DNA of 17,880 bases from an uncultured archaeon (lineage in GTDB: Archaea; Asgardarchaeota; Lokiarchaeia; Sigyniarchaeales; SOKP01), in assembly GCA_964447495.1 (NCBI GenBank), contig CAYUTF010000069.1, forward strand, positions 1 through 17,880. Direction: 5' to 3'. Of this stretch, positions 2,079-13,252 are shown in pieces. The translations under genes and the position numbers were made by a program. The first letter of the stretch is position 1, and every line of letters begins with the position of its first letter. Below the pieces are notes generated by a model. It ran no database searches. It was not told where the DNA came from and saw only the letters and a program-made list of their open reading frames with translations.

Positions 2079-2203
2079 TTTTTTTCTTCATTTACAGAGA
2101 ACTTATGCTTTTTCAAGTTAGAAGATAATTTTAAACCAAATATTTATTTTTTCTTATATCTTTAGATTCTTTAACTAATTCTAGCTTGTTAGTTTCAAAT
2201 GAT

Positions 2204-3634
2204 ATGAATATCAAAGTAAAATTTGGATTTCTCGCATTAATAATAATTCTCATTCAATCATGCATAAAGTTTATAGGAGTACTGTTAACTGGTAGTCTTA
2301 GCTTCTTATCTGAGACTATTGACACGTTCACAGACATCTTTTTTGTGTCTTTAACAATATATGCCCTATTCCAAAGTCAGAAACCCCCTGATTATCACCA
2401 TATGTATGGTCATGCTAAAATTGATTCAATTGGGGCTATGATTCAAGGGATTGTACTAATTAATATTTACATTCTCTTGATCGTAAACGCAATAAACTCA
2501 ATTTTATCGCAATCTTATTATGTAGCTAATGCCGATATTGGATTTCTTCTAATAATCATATCTTTCTTTATTAATATTTTATTTTCAAGATATTTAATAC
2601 TCCAAGGTAAGAAAAGAGAAAGTTTAATACTAAAAATTCAAGGTTTAAATCTTTTTCAAGATGCTATAAGAGCAGTTATCGTTATCATAAATTTTTTATT
2701 AGTCTTATTTTTTAATTTTAAGATATTAGATCCATATTTCAGTATAGCATTATCGATTTGGATAATCATAAGTGCTTTACAATTAGCAAAAGAAGGTATT
2801 AAAAATGTAATCGATGAAAATCCAATAGATGTTCAACTCATAGAGAACATGAAACGGGAGATAATGACATTAGACCATGTTATATCTGTTGAAGATCTGA
2901 AAATTAGGGCAAGTGGTAAAAATCTCTTTTTAGAGCTAAATCTATCAGTTGAAGATCATATTTCCGTTGTACATGCAAATGAAATTAGTAAACTTGTTAG
3001 AGAAATGGGTAAGAATTACTTTCCATTATATAAAGCAGAAATTATTATTGAAATGAATCCCCTATCCAGTGAACCCTCCTTAAGTGATAGAATAATTAAT
3101 TTGCTATATTCCATGAAGAGTGAATTTCCAGTAATTAGTGAAGTCAAAGATTTAAATATCTTTAGAATTGAAGATAATTACTTTATTTCACTTTCTATTG
3201 TTGTAGATGATAAATTAAGCTTAGCAGAAGCACATAAAGTATGCCATGATTTTGAGTCCCAACTAAAAGAACAAGTGCCACTAATTTCAAGAATTATAAC
3301 ACATATAGAAGCAAAACCAGTTCCAAAGAAAATTCTGGAAGATCAGGTAATTTGTACCAGCATCGAACCCGAAGAATTGAATAAAATTCAAGAAAAAATT
3401 GGGGAAATACTACAAACTATTCCGGAAGTAAAAGAATATCATAAATTAGAGGTGTGGAATGCATTAAGCTCTTGTATTTTGGAATTACACATCTTGTTTG
3501 ATGGTCATCTTAACATAAGCACGGTTCATGATCTGATAACTAAGATCGAACAAAAGTTGAGAAATAACCTAGAAATAGATAACCTAAAAGAAATTATCAT
3601 TCATTCTGAACCATTAAATAATACAATTAATTGA
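2204..3634 (+). CDS. Cation diffusion facilitator (CDF) transporter with three tandem C-terminal ZT_dimer-like domains
   Basis: About six hydrophobic segments, TGSLSFLSE..D..TD, KPPDYHHMYGHAK, ILDP. Three repeats of the DL/KL..LEL.L.V...LS...H...IIH.EP pattern follow. ATG at 2204 preferred over TTG at 2186. Confidence 0.9.
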   Translation: MNIKVKFGFLALIIILIQSCIKFIGVLLTGSLSFLSETIDTFTDIFFVSLTIYALFQSQKPPDYHHMYGHAKIDSIGAMIQGIVLINIYILLIVNAINSILSQSYYVANADIGFLLIIISFFINILFSRYLILQGKKRESLILKIQGLNLFQDAIRAVIVIINFLLVLFFNFKILDPYFSIALSIWIIISALQLAKEGIKNVIDENPIDVQLIENMKREIMTLDHVISVEDLKIRASGKNLFLELNLSVEDHISVVHANEISKLVREMGKNYFPLYKAEIIIEMNPLSSEPSLSDRIINLLYSMKSEFPVISEVKDLNIFRIEDNYFISLSIVVDDKLSLAEAHKVCHDFESQLKEQVPLISRIITHIEAKPVPKKILEDQVICTSIEPEELNKIQEKIGEILQTIPEVKEYHKLEVWNALSSCILELHILFDGHLNISTVHDLITKIEQKLRNNLEIDNLKEIIIHSEPLNNTIN

Positions 3635-7745: not shown

Positions 7746-8990
7746 CTAAGGATTTTCTATCTCTTTTTTTATAATATCCCTTAATTTAATTGCCTTGGTG
7801 ATTATAATTTGGATAAAACTGTTTTCAAAAATTAAGTTTGGACCCATATTTAGTTCTTTTCTTAAATAAAGCTTATCTATTTTCTCAGAAGTTAACCAAT
7901 CAGCAATTAAAATGCCTTTTCTCTTCTCAAGGTTTCTAAATTTATTTGATATAATTGTATAATTTGAGAGAATCTCTTTTCCCTCATTAATAAAATCTAA
8001 TAGGGCAAAAAATGGAGCTTCACCAAAATGATCTGAGATTTGAGAATCCAAATCACTATTTTCAGCTATCGGAATTGCTATTTTAATAGATTGTTTTGTT
8101 GTTGCTTCAGTAATTATAATTATTTTAAAAATTTGGGGAAATCTTGATGTAATTTTACTTGATATAGCCGCTTTTAAATCTTCTATAACTTCCAGGTGGA
8201 GTTCTTTATTTAAGGTAATATTGACTTCTAAAAAGATATATCTGCCGTAAGAGCGTACTTCTAGTTTTTTAATTTCTTTAACTGTTGAAAACTTAGTAAT
8301 TAAATCGTATAGTTCCTTTCTATTTTCAAAATCAATTACAGCATCAAGTAAAGTTTTTACAGATTCGACTAATATATCGTATCCCCCTTTAATGATAAAT
8401 ATCGCAATGATTAAACCTATTATAGTATCAATGAGAAAGAGTCCAAACAAAGCTGAAATAAAACTAATAATAACTGAAATAGAGATAAAGTTGTCATATA
8501 ATTTTTCACTTGCTTGAGATTGAATTATTGGTGATTTGGTATTTATCCCAATATATCTTAAATATAAAGTTAATAGAATCGTGATGAATAGAGATACGAG
8601 CAAAAAAATGAACACTTCAAGTGTTATGTTCAACGACTTCATTGTACCATTAATGAATAATGAAATATCCGATATTGCTTGTAGAATAATATTATAGGCA
8701 GTATAAAATATGAGTAATGAAATAACTAGACTTATAATGTTTTCAATTTTATAATAGCCATAAGGAAATTTTTCGTTCGGTTTTTTATTTACGTATATTA
8801 ACCCTATTAAAGCTACGAGAGCCATAATTATGTCTGTTAAGGAATCAAAAGCATCAGCTTGAAGAGCTAAACTGTTAGTTATGATAGAAAAGATTATTTT
8901 GAAGATGAATAATCCTAAAGTAATAATTAAGAGGATTAGGTTTAAAAAGACCGGATTTTTAAACAGTCTTTCATTCTTGGATATAGTCAT
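7746..8990 (-). CDS. CDF transporter fused to a C-terminal NifB/NifX (Nitro_FeMo-Co) domain
   Basis: NSLALQADAFDSLTD, KKPNEKFPYGYYKIE, hydrophobic core and ZT_dimer domain, then KIAIP...ISDHFGEAPFF. Start uncertain (8990 or 9011); it overlaps the upstream gene's stop. Confidence 0.88.
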   Translation of the reverse strand: MTISKNERLFKNPVFLNLILLIITLGLFIFKIIFSIITNSLALQADAFDSLTDIIMALVALIGLIYVNKKPNEKFPYGYYKIENIISLVISLLIFYTAYNIILQAISDISLFINGTMKSLNITLEVFIFLLVSLFITILLTLYLRYIGINTKSPIIQSQASEKLYDNFISISVIISFISALFGLFLIDTIIGLIIAIFIIKGGYDILVESVKTLLDAVIDFENRKELYDLITKFSTVKEIKKLEVRSYGRYIFLEVNITLNKELHLEVIEDLKAAISSKITSRFPQIFKIIIITEATTKQSIKIAIPIAENSDLDSQISDHFGEAPFFALLDFINEGKEILSNYTIISNKFRNLEKRKGILIADWLTSEKIDKLYLRKELNMGPNLIFENSFIQIIITKAIKLRDIIKKEIENP

Positions 8991-9705
8991 TATTAATCTT
9001 ATTTTTTTCAATGATCCATTTATCTACTAATAATTTCTGTAATTTCTTCTTCTGACTTACATCATAAGTATTATGGATTGTACTTTTTGGGATCCAGAAT
9101 TCCGCTCCTGATTCAAAGGTTATTAAAAGTGCTTTTGGACTTTCAACTTTTATTTTTGCCGATATCTCCAAAGTATCAACAGATACTCCATATTCTGTAG
9201 TTTCAATTATTTGCAATCCATCTCTAGTTGTTATATGTTCTGAAAATACTCCATACTGACTTTCATCATCGGATTTTTCCTCTTCTTTTGCATCAAATGT
9301 ACCTGAAGTTGCAAATTCAATTTTTTCGCTTAAAATATGCTCAAGCATTAATATAAAGAGAGTTAAATTTGGAAACCGTAATTTTTTCACATAATCGCCA
9401 ATTTTAATTCTTATTGCTTCCCTCGCTTCAGATTCCCATCCAACATAAATTTCGGTTTTTCTTTCTTTAAATACATGAGACCCTCTCCAATTTGCACTTT
9501 TCTTTTTAAGGACTTCTAAAATGCAAATTATTTCTTCGATTGACAATCTCACTGTCTTACCTTCTTTTTTTGAAGGTTTTTCCCAACTCCCATCTTCTTT
9601 TCTATTAATGCAACTCAAGAAGATATAGGGTACTTTTTGTGCAGGACTCGTCAGAATGAGCCCCTTTTTCTGCCCAAAAAAAGTTTTAGTATGAAAATCT
9701 GCCAT
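8971..9705 (-). CDS. Hypothetical protein, possible PC4/Whirly-like nucleic-acid-binding N-terminal domain
   Basis: 244-aa ORF with ATG start and normal codon composition. The segment RKEDGSWEKPSKKEGKTVRLSIEE resembles the PC4 pattern. Acidic linker; C-terminal ESPKALLI...WIPKS domain. The gene is well supported; the function is speculative. Confidence 0.75.
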   Translation of the reverse strand: MADFHTKTFFGQKKGLILTSPAQKVPYIFLSCINRKEDGSWEKPSKKEGKTVRLSIEEIICILEVLKKKSANWRGSHVFKERKTEIYVGWESEAREAIRIKIGDYVKKLRFPNLTLFILMLEHILSEKIEFATSGTFDAKEEEKSDDESQYGVFSEHITTRDGLQIIETTEYGVSVDTLEISAKIKVESPKALLITFESGAEFWIPKSTIHNTYDVSQKKKLQKLLVDKWIIEKNKINNDYIQE

Positions 9706-9862: not shown

Positions 9863-10168
9863 TCACATTAATTCAATTTCAACAAGAACAGATTCAGGGA
9901 TTTGAATTTTCATTATAAGATGCATACTTCGTTCATTTGCGATAATCTCAAAAAGTCTTTTATGGATTCTCATCTCAAATTTTGCCCATGTATTTGTCCC
10001 TTGACCTGATGGTGCTTTTAGGGTAGGAACGCTTAATCGTTTAGTAGGGAGAGGGATTGGTCCATATTTTTTTATTCCTTGATTCTTACAGACACTTTCG
10101 ATTTGGTCGCATACATTTTGAAGTGAATCAAGCTGAACACTTGAAAGACGAATACGAGCGGCTTGCAA
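9863..10168 (-). CDS. rpsJ: 30S ribosomal protein uS10 (archaeal type)
   Basis: ARIRLSS, GPIPLPTKRL, G.GT.TW..FEMRIHKRL, IM.I.IP..V..EI. TTG start with AGGAG upstream. Confidence 0.96.
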   Translation of the reverse strand: MQAARIRLSSVQLDSLQNVCDQIESVCKNQGIKKYGPIPLPTKRLSVPTLKAPSGQGTNTWAKFEMRIHKRLFEIIANERSMHLIMKIQIPESVLVEIELM

Positions 10169-10290: not shown

Positions 10291-11439
10291 TCAAAACCTT
10301 AAAAGAAATTGATTCCCTAAATGTACATTGACTAAATATTTTTTTGCAATTTTAAAACAAGCTAATGCCTGATCTTTAGAAGTAATAGGTAAATCACGCA
10401 TCTGATAATCTGGATGGAAAATTAATAAACTATAAGGAATCTTATTATCAATTTCACTTATAAAATGAGCAATTAATTCCACTTCATCTTTATTAATATA
10501 TCCTGGAACTAATAAAGTACACGCACTCATTTCAGGTAAATTTTTACGCTTTCCAAAATATGCTTCAGCCAAGAACTTAAAATTTTCCAAGGTTCTCTTA
10601 TTACTCACACCACATAAAGCGTAATTTAATCGTTCATGATATGATTTTAGATCAAATTTAATGTTTCCTCCCGTTTTCAGAGCAATTTTCATACAATTCT
10701 CTACTAATTTTCTATTTCCACTGCCATTCCATTCCCAGCATACTCGAAACTTTCGATCCTGTTTATTATCGCTAATTTTATTTAATATCAATTCTGCTAG
10801 ATTAATAGAAAAAGGTAATTGGGGTTCGGGTGTACCTCCAAAATAACAAATACAGGTTATCTTTTTATTATTATATATCTCATTTGCCAGTACTTCAACA
10901 TCATACAAAGTTCTAGTTGAAATATATTTATGAGAAGAATTTTGGCAAAAAAGACAATTGAATGAGCACCCATATAGGAATGCCGCATAGGAATACGTTC
11001 CTAATTCAGGACCGTTATGATTTGAATACTCTGGATACCCATTAGACGTTCCAGCCGGACAAAACCATGCATTGCAACAGTTTGTAGGATTTGCATCAAT
11101 ATACCCATGAATGTATCCTTTTGATTTTGTTGGAAACGGTAATTCTCCCGTTTGATTTTTTTTAATATTTCTCAATCCGCAATAGCTAATATCAGAGGCA
11201 TTAAGACTACATTCATTCATACATAGATTACATTGTAATTCTATCTTATCTTTTGATGATTTAGGAGGCAACCCCGGTAAATCTGCGGTTTTTCTTACTT
11301 GTTTATGTATATTTAATAAATATGGTTTCACGACAGCCCAGTTTTGATCAAGGATGCAATTACGGCATATTTGAAGAATTTCCGAGATATTTCTAGAGGT
11401 TGTTCCACAAAATTTACACATACCCATAGTATCTCTCAT
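10291..11439 (-). CDS. Radical SAM protein (PflA/AmmeMemoRadiSam-like, COG1180) with Cys-rich N-terminal extension
   Basis: GCSFNCLFCQN (CxxxCxxC), FGGTPEP, WEWNGSG, KFDLK, LLVPGY, FHPDY. Extra CKFC, CRNC, CNLCMNEC..C and NCC...C clusters. ATGA overlap with the upstream methyltransferase. Confidence 0.9.
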   Translation of the reverse strand: MRDTMGMCKFCGTTSRNISEILQICRNCILDQNWAVVKPYLLNIHKQVRKTADLPGLPPKSSKDKIELQCNLCMNECSLNASDISYCGLRNIKKNQTGELPFPTKSKGYIHGYIDANPTNCCNAWFCPAGTSNGYPEYSNHNGPELGTYSYAAFLYGCSFNCLFCQNSSHKYISTRTLYDVEVLANEIYNNKKITCICYFGGTPEPQLPFSINLAELILNKISDNKQDRKFRVCWEWNGSGNRKLVENCMKIALKTGGNIKFDLKSYHERLNYALCGVSNKRTLENFKFLAEAYFGKRKNLPEMSACTLLVPGYINKDEVELIAHFISEIDNKIPYSLLIFHPDYQMRDLPITSKDQALACFKIAKKYLVNVHLGNQFLLRF

Positions 11440-12092
11440 GCTTTTTTTAATAATAGAAAAGTTTGACCCGATTTCTGGTTCGGGTTTTGTTTTATCATAA
11501 ATCCATTAAATCCATTGTTAATAAAAGAAGATTTAAACTGATTTAATTCTTCTTCATCATTTGGATAAAATTCCAGTACCATCCTGCTATTAGGTTTTAA
11601 AATTGTATTTAAGTATTGAGCTGTTTTTGTTAATAAAATATTTTTTTCTTTAGATGTTTGAAGCGTATTTATAATAAAATTATATGCTGAGATTGAAATG
11701 ATGTGGTCAATTGAATTACCTCTAAAAGGTAACTGATTAATGTCTGCCAAAATATATTCAAGAAATGATTTCTTATCATATCTTTTCATTCTATCTCTCG
11801 CTTTAAAAATCATGTCCTTCAAAATATCGATTCCAATTACTTTAAATCCATTTTCTAACAATGTTTCAGAAGAAAATCCCGTTCCACATCCTAAATCCAA
11901 AACTAAATAGGGTATATCTTGAAGAGAGTTGATGATATTTAACCTATCCAATTGATCATCAAACAAATATTGAATGCAGAGCAATGTGGTTTTTTTTTGA
12001 TTTCTCTGCATCCAAATTGATTCATCATATTCTTCTGCTTTTTCGCCAATGTATGAATTGGGAAATTTTGGTTTCTTCGTTTTTCGTGACAT
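11436..12092 (-). CDS. Class I SAM-dependent methyltransferase, Bud23/WBSCR22-like (putative SSU rRNA m7G methyltransferase)
   Basis: Motif I VLDLGCGTG plus Bud23-like blocks AEEY..S...Q...T, LPFR..S.D..ISISA, EFYPND and GFNG.....P...K....LLL. The methyltransferase call is firm; the Bud23 assignment comes from the recalled yeast sequence. Confidence 0.85.
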   Translation of the reverse strand: MSRKTKKPKFPNSYIGEKAEEYDESIWMQRNQKKTTLLCIQYLFDDQLDRLNIINSLQDIPYLVLDLGCGTGFSSETLLENGFKVIGIDILKDMIFKARDRMKRYDKKSFLEYILADINQLPFRGNSIDHIISISAYNFIINTLQTSKEKNILLTKTAQYLNTILKPNSRMVLEFYPNDEEELNQFKSSFINNGFNGFMIKQNPNQKSGQTFLLLKKA

Positions 12093-12223
12093 TGATGAGA
12101 AATTATTTGTGGTTCAAATAAACTATTAAATACGTAAATAAATATATTATAGTTAAAATAAATTCAAATGATTTATTTATTTTAAAACAAACGAACATAA
12201 AAAAGAATCAGTCGGGGTTGATT

Positions 12224-12607
12224 ATGCCAGAAAATAAGACAATATTAGTCGTTGATGATGAACCAGATATTGTTAATTTAACAGAAAAGATATTAAAGTT
12301 AGGAAAATTTAAAACTCTTACATGCAATAACGGGAAAGAAGCATTAAAGATTATTGAGGATAAATATTCCGAAATCTCGCTTGTTTTATTAGATCTAATG
12401 ATGCCAGGAGTGAGTGGAATGGAAGTATTGAGAACTATCAAGTCCAATGATATATTTAAACATATACAAGTGATTCTATTTACTGTAAAAAGTTTTAAAG
12501 AGGATATCCAAAAAGGAAAGGAGATGGGGGCTGATGGTTACATAACAAAACCATTTTCCGGTAAACAGCTCTTAGAATATATAAATAAAGTGTTTGAAAA
12601 AAGCTGA
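12224..12607 (+). CDS. Stand-alone response regulator receiver protein (CheY-like)
   Basis: ILVVDDE, LLDLMMPG (phospho-Asp), LFT, GADGYITKPF. ATG at 12224 preferred over TTG at 12218. Confidence 0.93.
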   Translation: MPENKTILVVDDEPDIVNLTEKILKLGKFKTLTCNNGKEALKIIEDKYSEISLVLLDLMMPGVSGMEVLRTIKSNDIFKHIQVILFTVKSFKEDIQKGKEMGADGYITKPFSGKQLLEYINKVFEKS

Positions 12608-12859: not shown

Positions 12860-13252
12860 ATGAGCAAAGTGGCGGGTAAAATATTAATTGTTGATGATGA
12901 ACCCGATATCGTCAACTTAACTCAAAGTTTTCTACAACTCGAAAATTATAACACACTTACTTGCGGTGATGGGGAAGAAGCTCTTAAGATTATAGAAAAA
13001 CACCATGATGAAATAATGCTCGTGTTATTAGACATCATGATGCCAAAAGTGGATGGCTATAAGGTGTTAGAAAAAATAAAAACGAATGAAAAATATAAAA
13101 AAATACTTGTAATCTTATTTACTGTAAAAAATTTTAAATTTGACATAATTAAGGGAAAAGAACTAGGTGCAGACGGATATCTCTTAAAGGCGATATCTGG
13201 AAAAGCATTGCTTGATTATGTTAAAAAAATTCTCGAAAAGAAAGTATTGTAA
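12860..13252 (+). CDS. Stand-alone response regulator receiver protein (CheY-like), paralog of the preceding gene
   Basis: ILIVDDE, LLDIMMP, LFT, GADGYLLKAI. Shares DDEPDIVNLT, TLTC, EALKIIE, VILFTVK and KGKE.GADGY with the neighbour. Confidence 0.92.
   Translation: MSKVAGKILIVDDEPDIVNLTQSFLQLENYNTLTCGDGEEALKIIEKHHDEIMLVLLDIMMPKVDGYKVLEKIKTNEKYKKILVILFTVKNFKFDIIKGKELGADGYLLKAISGKALLDYVKKILEKKVL

Follow-up and report, generated by a model that had tools for sequence, protein, structure and literature searches.

Bud23 in complex with Trm112 is a textbook biogenesis factor of the eukaryotic 40S ribosomal subunit. Here we describe a relative of this enzyme encoded by an uncultured Asgard archaeon, in a stretch of 17,880 nucleotides (the window) that lies on contig C69 of a 3.81-Mb assembly comprising 223 contigs and estimated to be 98.4% complete. 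The open reading frame of the gene (P0001) coincides exactly with 11436-12092 of the minus strand. It lies in an AT-rich context with a G+C content of ~30% and encodes a class I S-adenosylmethionine (SAM) methyltransferase of 218 residues. A second family member resides on contig C24 of the same genome, and the two are named N-type (window) and Q-type (C24) after the residue that follows the motif SISAx. The window protein is a well-supported member of the Bud23 family in the broad sense, and its gene is better described as a divergent or derived paralog than as "the" archaeal Bud23.

Among described systems, yeast Bud23 and human BUD23 (WBSCR22) are the closest. The window protein shares their fold, including the N-terminal helices, with template modelling (TM) scores of 0.88-0.91 and root-mean-square deviations (rmsd) of 2.3-3.0 Å, as well as the sequence blocks Y...Q helix, motif I, SISA, FYP and GF.G; it is likewise basic and is predicted to use the same β3/β4 zipper with Trm112. 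Unlike yeast and human Bud23, to which it is ~27-28% identical, it lacks the PF12589 domain and carries the replacements Q138N, W139F, Q174E, KK209-210 to GQ and RPE to P.K, and its archaeal host has neither a nucleolus nor nuclear export. Hvo_0019 of Haloferax volcanii, in complex with Trm112, is another archaeal class I methyltransferase, and the window protein is predicted to engage Trm112 through the same surface, as in this and further archaeal holoenzymes of Trm112; the likeness of Hvo_0019 to the window protein in sequence and structure is far weaker than that of Bud23, and according to PMC6144793 it is not a Bud23 relative. PDB chain 6f5z_B is among the Foldseek matches of the window protein (E 9.7e-13). 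The best non-Bud23 archaeal chain in the PDB, the uncharacterised Pyrococcus methyltransferase PH0226 (PDB 1ve3; 2.9e-16 in a profile search), aligns to the SAM core only (profile positions 53-168), with a TM score of 0.61-0.63 and an rmsd of 4.7 Å.

According to two specialist papers on Trm112, PMC5372719 and PMC6144793, archaea are without a protein of significant Bud23 homology, and no modification of the equivalent rRNA base is known from them; the remark of an initial annotation of this DNA that Bud23 is usually treated as eukaryotic matches these statements. Full-text literature searches returned no paper naming Bud23 together with Asgard, Lokiarchaeota or DPANN, and among the papers that name both WBSCR22 and Asgard, PMC8339473 and PMC9467602 carry WBSCR22 in the reference list only. 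A term search also found no "Bud23" in the main texts of PMC8481954 and PMC8997704, which survey archaea systematically for eukaryotic ribosome biogenesis factors and whose supplements may list it. The initial annotation had allowed that archaeal homologs might already have been reported: automatic JGI names do call some of them Bud23, but none is described in the literature searched. An archaeal Bud23 family is implicit in databases and, within the reach of these searches, undescribed, and the split into N-type and Q-type, their tandem origin and their linkage to ribosomal protein genes appear to be new.

Family membership of the window protein

When the single window sequence was searched against the PDB with phmmer, human WBSCR22 (2.4e-16) and yeast Bud23 (1.1e-14) ranked best; the five best distinct sequences are all Bud23/WBSCR22 or 9xab, which is labelled "methyltransferase-like protein", and PH0226 came next at 7e-12. 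A profile of 28 Asgard relatives of the window protein (A3, length 212) matched yeast Bud23 at 9.8e-37, human WBSCR22 at 2.4e-31 and 9xab at 6.8e-30 across positions 9-208 of 212, whereas the first non-Bud23 chain, 3l8d (2.7e-16), matched the SAM core only (positions 55-170). In this search, Bud23 chains are 14 to 20 orders of magnitude better in E-value than generic methyltransferases. Comparison of the N-type profile with a eukaryotic Bud23 profile by hhalign gave an E-value of 1.1e-46 over 202 columns. Additionally, an exhaustive HMMER scan of 1.84 billion representatives retrieved 3572 proteins at E ≤1e-3, only 123 of them at E ≤1e-10. For Pfam labelling, the 126 of 150 listed representatives with at least 180 residues were taken together with the window protein (127 in all), and PF12589, which marks eukaryotic Bud23, was found in 39 of these 127 nearest sequences.

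In line with the profile comparisons, the AlphaFold2 model of the window protein (predicted local distance difference test score, pLDDT, 88; predicted TM score 0.86) adopts a seven-strand Rossmann-like fold whose first-ranking matches in the PDB are Bud23/WBSCR22 chains. Specifically, these chains fill all of the top 8 Foldseek positions with E-values of 2.3e-19 to 2.8e-17, target-normalised TM scores of 0.73-0.91 and rmsd values of 2.3-3.0 Å, and the following match stands at 2.2e-13. Trees were computed from hand-picked subsets of sequences (91 and 87 rows) with an outgroup picked from weak matches. In the careful maximum-likelihood tree of 87 rows, the window protein groups with eukaryotic Bud23, and the family is split from the outgroup methyltransferases at 96/97, with the caveat of one outgroup row that is taken up below; the N-type clade is supported at 100/99 and the subclade of the window protein at 100/98. 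Three tail-less proteins of ~274 residues with N-terminal extensions (P0183, P0207 and P0219) form a group of their own (99/88) inside the eukaryotic Bud23 clade (100/98). The median isoelectric point (pI) of family proteins is 9.2-9.45 and that of the window protein is 9.0, compared with 5.5 for the outgroup methyltransferases. Taken together, because the profile, fold, tree and pI results agree, the window protein is a Bud23-family member in the broad sense.

The SAM-binding glycine loop, motif I (LDLGCGTG, residues 65-72; 11877..11900, minus strand), is kept by every subfamily: D66 never varies across 127 family and near-family sequences, and conservation of L65, G68, C69, G70 and G72 is at least 90% in this set. 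All SAM-binding positions (D66, G68, G70, G72, D89 and D117) are kept in the window protein. The family motif that follows strand β4 reads SISAYNF (residues 133-139; 11676..11696, minus strand), with N138 and F139 specific to N-type, and the end of strand β5, which spans residues 165-175 in the AlphaFold2 model, carries EFYP (residues 174-177; 11562..11573, minus strand), in which E174 replaces the family Q. Pfam assigns generic domains to the window protein (Methyltransf_25, 6e-15; Methyltransf_11, 8e-15). Neither this protein nor its C24 paralog has a curated name, because all NCBIfam models fall below their cut-offs for both.

The initial annotation, drawn up from the letters of the window, had proposed a true Bud23 relative in an archaeon, similar along the whole protein and devoid of the eukaryotic basic tail. 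Profile, fold and tree confirm the relationship, and the profile match over positions 9-208 of 212 bears out the extent of the likeness. The Bud23 blocks that it listed reappear in the HMMER alignment of the Asgard profile to yeast Bud23, in which the aligned blocks are the N-terminal helix EA.KY...Q, LDiGCGsGlS, iPFRagsfDaaiSiSa, fYPk and GfsGglvvdDPeskk. The tail is indeed missing: PF12589, the eukaryotic basic C-terminal domain, is undetected by Pfam in the window protein, which ends with the methyltransferase domain, and the PF12589 columns of the tree alignment are unfilled in every archaeal group.

A second copy and the relation to eukaryotic Bud23

A profile of 20 eukaryotic Bud23 representatives (A4), searched against the window's own genome, matched the copy on contig C24 first (2.6e-41, 142.1 bits, profile positions 3-203) and the window gene second (1.0e-33, 117.2 bits, positions 15-204), followed at a distance by a third protein (5e-15, 56.1 bits). 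The genome contains two family members, the second of which the initial annotation had missed. The Q-type gene on C24 (L089:4461-5093, plus strand) starts with TTG and encodes 210 residues, and its product is 31% identical to the window protein over 208 residues. Both proteins belong to the same family, have similar lengths, end without a basic tail and are encoded in linkage to small-subunit ribosomal protein genes. They differ in that Q-type keeps RPE, SISALQW, QFYP and KKRK and has relatives in DPANN archaea.

These hallmark residues separate the two copies. As eukaryotic Bud23 does, the C24 copy carries RPED near its N-terminus, SISALQW, QFYP and PKKRKIFL, and a search with this sequence alone reaches solved Bud23/WBSCR22 chains at E-values between 8.1e-26 and 8e-25 (91-94 bits) over nearly its full length, compared with 57-63 bits for the window sequence. 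In the window protein, the eukaryotic Q-W after SISA, the Q of QFYP and the KK before the last strand are not kept. Specifically, Q, W and Q at positions 138, 139 and 174 are each 100% conserved in the eukaryotic, Asgard Q-type and DPANN groups, and the replacing N, F and E are each 100% conserved in the N-type groups. Additionally, KK209-210 is changed to GQ in N-type (90% in the window's family), and RPE near the N-terminus reads P.K in the window protein. Eukaryotes show at least 90% conservation at 62 columns, of which the window protein keeps 33 and its paralog 36. The window gene is thus not the reciprocal best match of eukaryotic Bud23 in its own genome. Since the paralog scores higher and retains hallmark residues that are replaced in the window copy, the proposal that the window gene is the archaeal counterpart of Bud23 is not supported as it stood.

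In the AlphaFold2 model, residues 138 and 139 lie just after strand β4, and residue 174 lies at the end of β5. In class I methyltransferases, the regions after β4 and at the end of β5 line the substrate pocket. By analogy, the N-type replacements are probably located at the substrate pocket.

Which archaeal type is nearest to eukaryotic Bud23 depends on the comparison. A quick tree placed the eukaryotes among Q-type sequences, and the careful tree placed them outside all archaeal sequences, with support of 45-71% at the deep nodes. The solid clades in the careful tree are N-type (100/99), Asgard Q-type (100/98) and the eukaryotes together with the three tail-less relatives (100/98). An approximately unbiased (AU) test rejects neither a clade of eukaryotes and N-type (p 0.312) nor one of eukaryotes and Asgard Q-type (p 0.242). 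Similarly, hhalign scores against the eukaryotic profile are 308.9 for N-type (1.1e-46) and 311.7 for Q-type (1.2e-47), and the two archaeal profiles score 272 against each other. A scheme in which Q-type is the ortholog and N-type an out-paralog was dropped, because hhalign puts both profiles equally close to eukaryotes. We favour Q-type as the putative conservative copy on the basis of the profile-to-sequence scores and the hallmark residues.

Trm112 and the candidate function of N-type

The genome search for Trm112 that the initial annotation had suggested located a gene on contig C181 (L003:1477-2124, plus strand), which encodes 211-215 residues and matches PF03966 at 34.3 bits against a cut-off of 22. 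In its product, the two halves of the zinc knuckle are split by an insert of ~125 residues and are followed by a conserved C-terminal extension. A 207-residue form of this protein is conserved across the same Asgard lineages, with full-length matches in several other families of the phylum, and Trm112 matches occur in all four Asgard families that have Bud23-family genes. A zinc-ribbon open reading frame on contig C89 (L001:1495-1725), the top raw Trm112 match in the genome scan, was rejected as Trm112 because it scores 19.9 bits with PF03966, below the cut-off of 22, and because TFIIB-type zinc ribbon models score better.

The complex of N-type with Trm112 was predicted from alignments for both chains, taking the median of three runs and comparing it with three controls. 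The best control scored 0.01 and the complex 0.89; the mark attained by the complex is matched by 58 of 80 solved complexes and by 2 of 110 mismatched pairs. At least 81% of contacts are shared between runs, and the pLDDT of the partner is at least 88. In the predicted interface, strand β3 of N-type (residues 111-116; 11745..11762, minus strand), which is a strand at 111-115 in the AlphaFold2 model of the window protein, pairs with the C-terminal strand of Trm112 (residues 166-173), the contacts of lowest error being those of 112-116 to 168-172. A β3/β4 zipper is described for all Trm112-methyltransferase complexes in section 2.5 of PMC5372719. The interface predicted here would correspond to this canonical β-zipper.

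We consider it fairly probable that N-type is a Trm112-dependent methyltransferase of small-subunit rRNA. In such a scheme, N-type would bind Trm112, a zinc-knuckle activator whose gene lies on another contig, through the zipper between β3 and the Trm112 C-terminal strand, would take up SAM via its intact motifs I-III, and would methylate a base of small-subunit rRNA, most likely a purine, during maturation of the 30S head. The computations show the family membership, the fold, the intact SAM motifs, the presence of Trm112, the predicted interface, the synteny with uS10 and the basic charge; the RNA substrate, the chemistry, the target position and the timing are what we infer. Because the Bud23 pocket is preserved in Q-type and replaced by a fixed alternative in N-type, and both copies have long been retained, the comparison of residues suggests that Q-type is the likelier enzyme for N7-methylguanosine (m7G) at the position equivalent to G1575, and that N-type probably acts on a different nucleotide or site or has a specialised role.

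The strong family membership in profile, fold and hhalign comparisons, the presence in the genome of a Trm112 that is predicted to bind, and an AU test that does not reject a clade of N-type and eukaryotes (p 0.312) would also fit a direct functional ortholog of Bud23, which together with Trm112 would make m7G at the G1575-equivalent position of 16S rRNA. A genome of the same family carries the conserved target context GGAATCCCTAGTAATCG in its 16S gene; no archaeal small-subunit rRNA gene is assembled in the window's 98%-complete metagenome-assembled genome (MAG), and the relative L120 was used for this check. We take the site to be equivalent to yeast G1575, and its context does not discriminate between the readings because the site is universally conserved. 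The window gene ranks second to its C24 paralog for the eukaryotic profile, reaches 63 bits against Bud23 chains compared with 91-94 bits for the paralog as single sequences, and no longer has the Q, W, Q and KK that eukaryotes, Asgard Q-type and DPANN all keep without variation; moreover, the long retention of both copies speaks against redundancy. We accordingly regard direct orthology in function as unlikely. Alternatively, Trm112 could serve N-type in the methylation of a tRNA, a ribosomal protein or a release factor instead of rRNA, since archaeal Trm112 binds many different methyltransferases, according to PMC6144793. The residues near the active site are unlike those of Bud23, and a ThiI/THUMP tRNA enzyme is encoded near the paralog cluster on C24. 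However, all characterised relatives in the family are rRNA enzymes, and the conserved linkage is to genes of small-subunit ribosomal proteins. This linkage would suit a ribosomal protein substrate, yet no family member is known to act on one, and we hold a substrate other than rRNA to be decidedly unlikely.

N-type could also be a catalytically silent assembly factor on pre-30S particles, much as yeast and human Bud23 have a role that does not depend on methylation. Eukaryotic 40S biogenesis needs the Bud23 protein and not its activity, as PMC5372719 reports, and the hallmark residues are changed in N-type. The conservation of D66, G68, G70, G72, D89 and D117, together with N-type residues that are 100% fixed, nevertheless suggests a working pocket, and we hold a silent factor to be very improbable. 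Hardly credible, finally, is a generic small-molecule methyltransferase of the UbiE, BioC or ArsM kind whose likeness to Bud23 reflects the shared SAM fold. Pfam and NCBIfam do offer generic families only, without an NCBIfam model at its cut-off, and JGI names 7 of the 120 matches listed "UbiE", but the alignment to Bud23 includes N-terminal helices and C-terminal strands beyond the SAM core, the gap in E-value over generic methyltransferases is 14 to 20 orders of magnitude, Bud23 ranks first by structure, the tree splits the family from the outgroup at 96/97, and the pI is 9.0.

Several points weigh against an rRNA methyltransferase with a site of its own. As Trm112-methyltransferase complexes have already been solved, the passing complex score may reflect likeness to them without proving binding. 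Trm112 is a general hub that 109 of the 151 sampled phylum genomes encode, so its presence is permissive and not specific. A shared neighbourhood with ribosomal protein genes likewise amounts to guilt by association. The outgroup row P0268, on a very long branch, is placed inside the family in the maximum-likelihood tree. Given that the AU test does not reject a clade with eukaryotes, N-type could be a co-ortholog acting at the same site, and the hhalign scores of the two types against eukaryotes are nearly equal. The idea of a different site draws on four to six fixed substitutions only, whose placement at the pocket follows from general class I architecture without a ligand-bound model. Archaeal members of the family are known from sequences and predicted structures alone.

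Distribution and ribosomal-protein neighbourhoods

A search of 5.8 billion proteins returned 600 matches among 857 candidates. The 120 matches listed share 56-100% identity with the window protein along virtually its entire length; those named by NCBI come from MAGs called Lokiarchaeota, Promethearchaeota, Thor-, Odin-, Heimdall- and Hodarchaeota, and JGI names 6 of them "18S rRNA (guanine1575-N7)-methyltransferase" and 7 "UbiE". Proteins 58-64% identical to the window protein carry the NCBI labels Heimdall-, Hod-, Thor- and Odinarchaeota; these labels may be loose, or the phylum sample described below may miss lineages, because the distribution in that survey is narrow (4 of 27 families). A scan of named genomes found N-type proteins at 51-62% identity in many Asgard MAGs and divergent ones (30-39%) in Candidatus Lokiarchaeum ossiferum, a Promethearchaeum sp. 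and Candidatus Harpocratesius repetitus. The family extends beyond Asgard to DPANN archaea, with Q-like proteins (27-38%) in MAGs of Micrarchaeota, Aenigmatarchaeota, Woesearchaeota, Nanoarchaeota and Iainarchaeum. RPE, SISALQW, QFYP and KKRK are all carried by the DPANN Q-type genes (L055-L078, L084 and L087, including Iainarchaeum/Diapherotrites). Rows of the N-type clade in the maximum-likelihood tree come from Asgard genomes or unnamed metagenome proteins only. For 10 intermediate representatives, a cluster look-up yielded hardly any taxon names.

A profile of the whole Bud23 family (E ≤1e-20), run against an even sample of 151 genomes from 27 families of the phylum, matched 32 genomes in 4 families: all 25 genomes of the window's family (f1) besides the window's own, both genomes of the sister family (f2), 3 of 4 in f3 and the single genome of f18. 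Across the other 23 sampled families it matched 0 of 119 genomes, where zero means not found in those searched, because each family is only sampled and many of the genomes lack parts. Of the 25 other f1 genomes, 18 have two copies, as do both f2 genomes.

The small-subunit ribosomal proteins eS25 and uS10 are located in the head, as is the target of Bud23. On contig C24, an eS25 gene (L089:4013-4312, minus strand; PF03297, 32.4 bits against a cut-off of 28.8) diverges from the Q-type gene, and this divergent pairing recurs in 19 of 19 f1 loci and 2 of 2 f2 loci; eS25 stands beside Q-type in 0 of 24 DPANN loci and in 0 of the 4 single-copy loci L112-L115. In the window, a gene for uS10 (9863..10168, minus strand; PF00338, 91 bits) lies downstream of N-type, separated from it by a radical SAM gene of 382 residues (10291..11439, minus strand; PF04055), whose ATG overlaps the methyltransferase stop codon as ATGA at 11436-11439. 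The radical SAM protein has an N-terminal Cys-rich, zinc-ribbon-like segment, and its likeness to AmmeMemoRadiSam and glycyl-radical activase models is weak (46 bits, where the cut-off is 220). Among 39 close N-type loci, radical SAM is downstream in 35, two of the four misses being loci that end after the gene, and uS10 is downstream in 31. The radical SAM gene stands between N-type and uS10 in the window's family only; uS10 directly follows N-type, without radical SAM between them, in L015, L047, L053 and L054.

Q-type and N-type are found in tandem in L046 (Lokiarchaeum ossiferum), L047, L052, L053, L054/L111 and L110, where L054 and L111 are the same open reading frame, counted once. In these loci, eS25 diverges from Q-type and N-type follows; in three of them, uS10 comes next. 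For the Promethearchaeum sp., the short locus L045 shows the N-type gene only. The most economical history is that a gene duplicated in tandem among genes for small-subunit ribosomal proteins, after which the pair parted in the window's family and the radical SAM gene was inserted between N-type and uS10. The N-type match in L111 (G089:C60:11147-11614) contains one in-frame TGA, and the open frame there is unusually long (304-311 residues).

These data describe a Bud23 family of archaea that is well supported in Asgard and DPANN and sits in ribosomal-protein neighbourhoods, plus a derived paralog restricted to Asgard. They are relevant to the question of which components of eukaryotic ribosome biogenesis are older than eukaryotes. 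As a tentative but possible joint interpretation, we propose a two-enzyme, Trm112-dependent Bud23 system that arose in one Asgard group by tandem duplication between eS25 and uS10, in which Q-type would install the eukaryote-like m7G of the 30S head and N-type, with its new pocket, would install a second, undescribed modification or act as a dedicated 30S-head assembly factor. If this two-enzyme system exists, Bud23-Trm112 would be older than eukaryotes, inherited from or exchanged with archaea, which would contradict its view as a eukaryotic invention. Vertical inheritance from an Asgard ancestor is not established, because the distribution is patchy (4 of 27 families, plus DPANN) and the deep tree nodes are weakly supported. 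As the cultured Lokiarchaeum ossiferum has the tandem pair, the proposal makes a testable prediction, namely an m7G in 16S rRNA at the P-site ridge together with a second modification.

Around the Q-type gene, contig C24 also encodes a 310-residue Gtr1/RagA-like small GTPase (L089:1720-2652, plus strand; PF04670, 3.5e-25), a eukaryote-like signature protein, with a ThiI/THUMP gene ~0.5 kb upstream of it. The GTPase gene occurs near the Q-type gene in several related loci. tRNA and Rfam scans of the window returned no match. Divergently upstream of N-type, a receiver-domain (response-regulator) gene is present in 39 of 39 close loci, and the window holds two paralogous stand-alone response-regulator receivers, at 12218-12607 and 12860-13252 on the plus strand, of 129 and 130 residues. 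Downstream of uS10, an open reading frame of 244 residues (8971-9705, minus strand) is without a Pfam or NCBIfam match and has counterparts of 61-76% identity downstream of uS10 in many related loci. Two cation-efflux (CDF) transporters are encoded at 7746-9011 (minus strand) and 2186-3634 (plus strand), one of which is fused to a dinitrogenase FeMo-cofactor-binding-type domain (PF02579), and the other of which has three matched ZT_dimer stretches.

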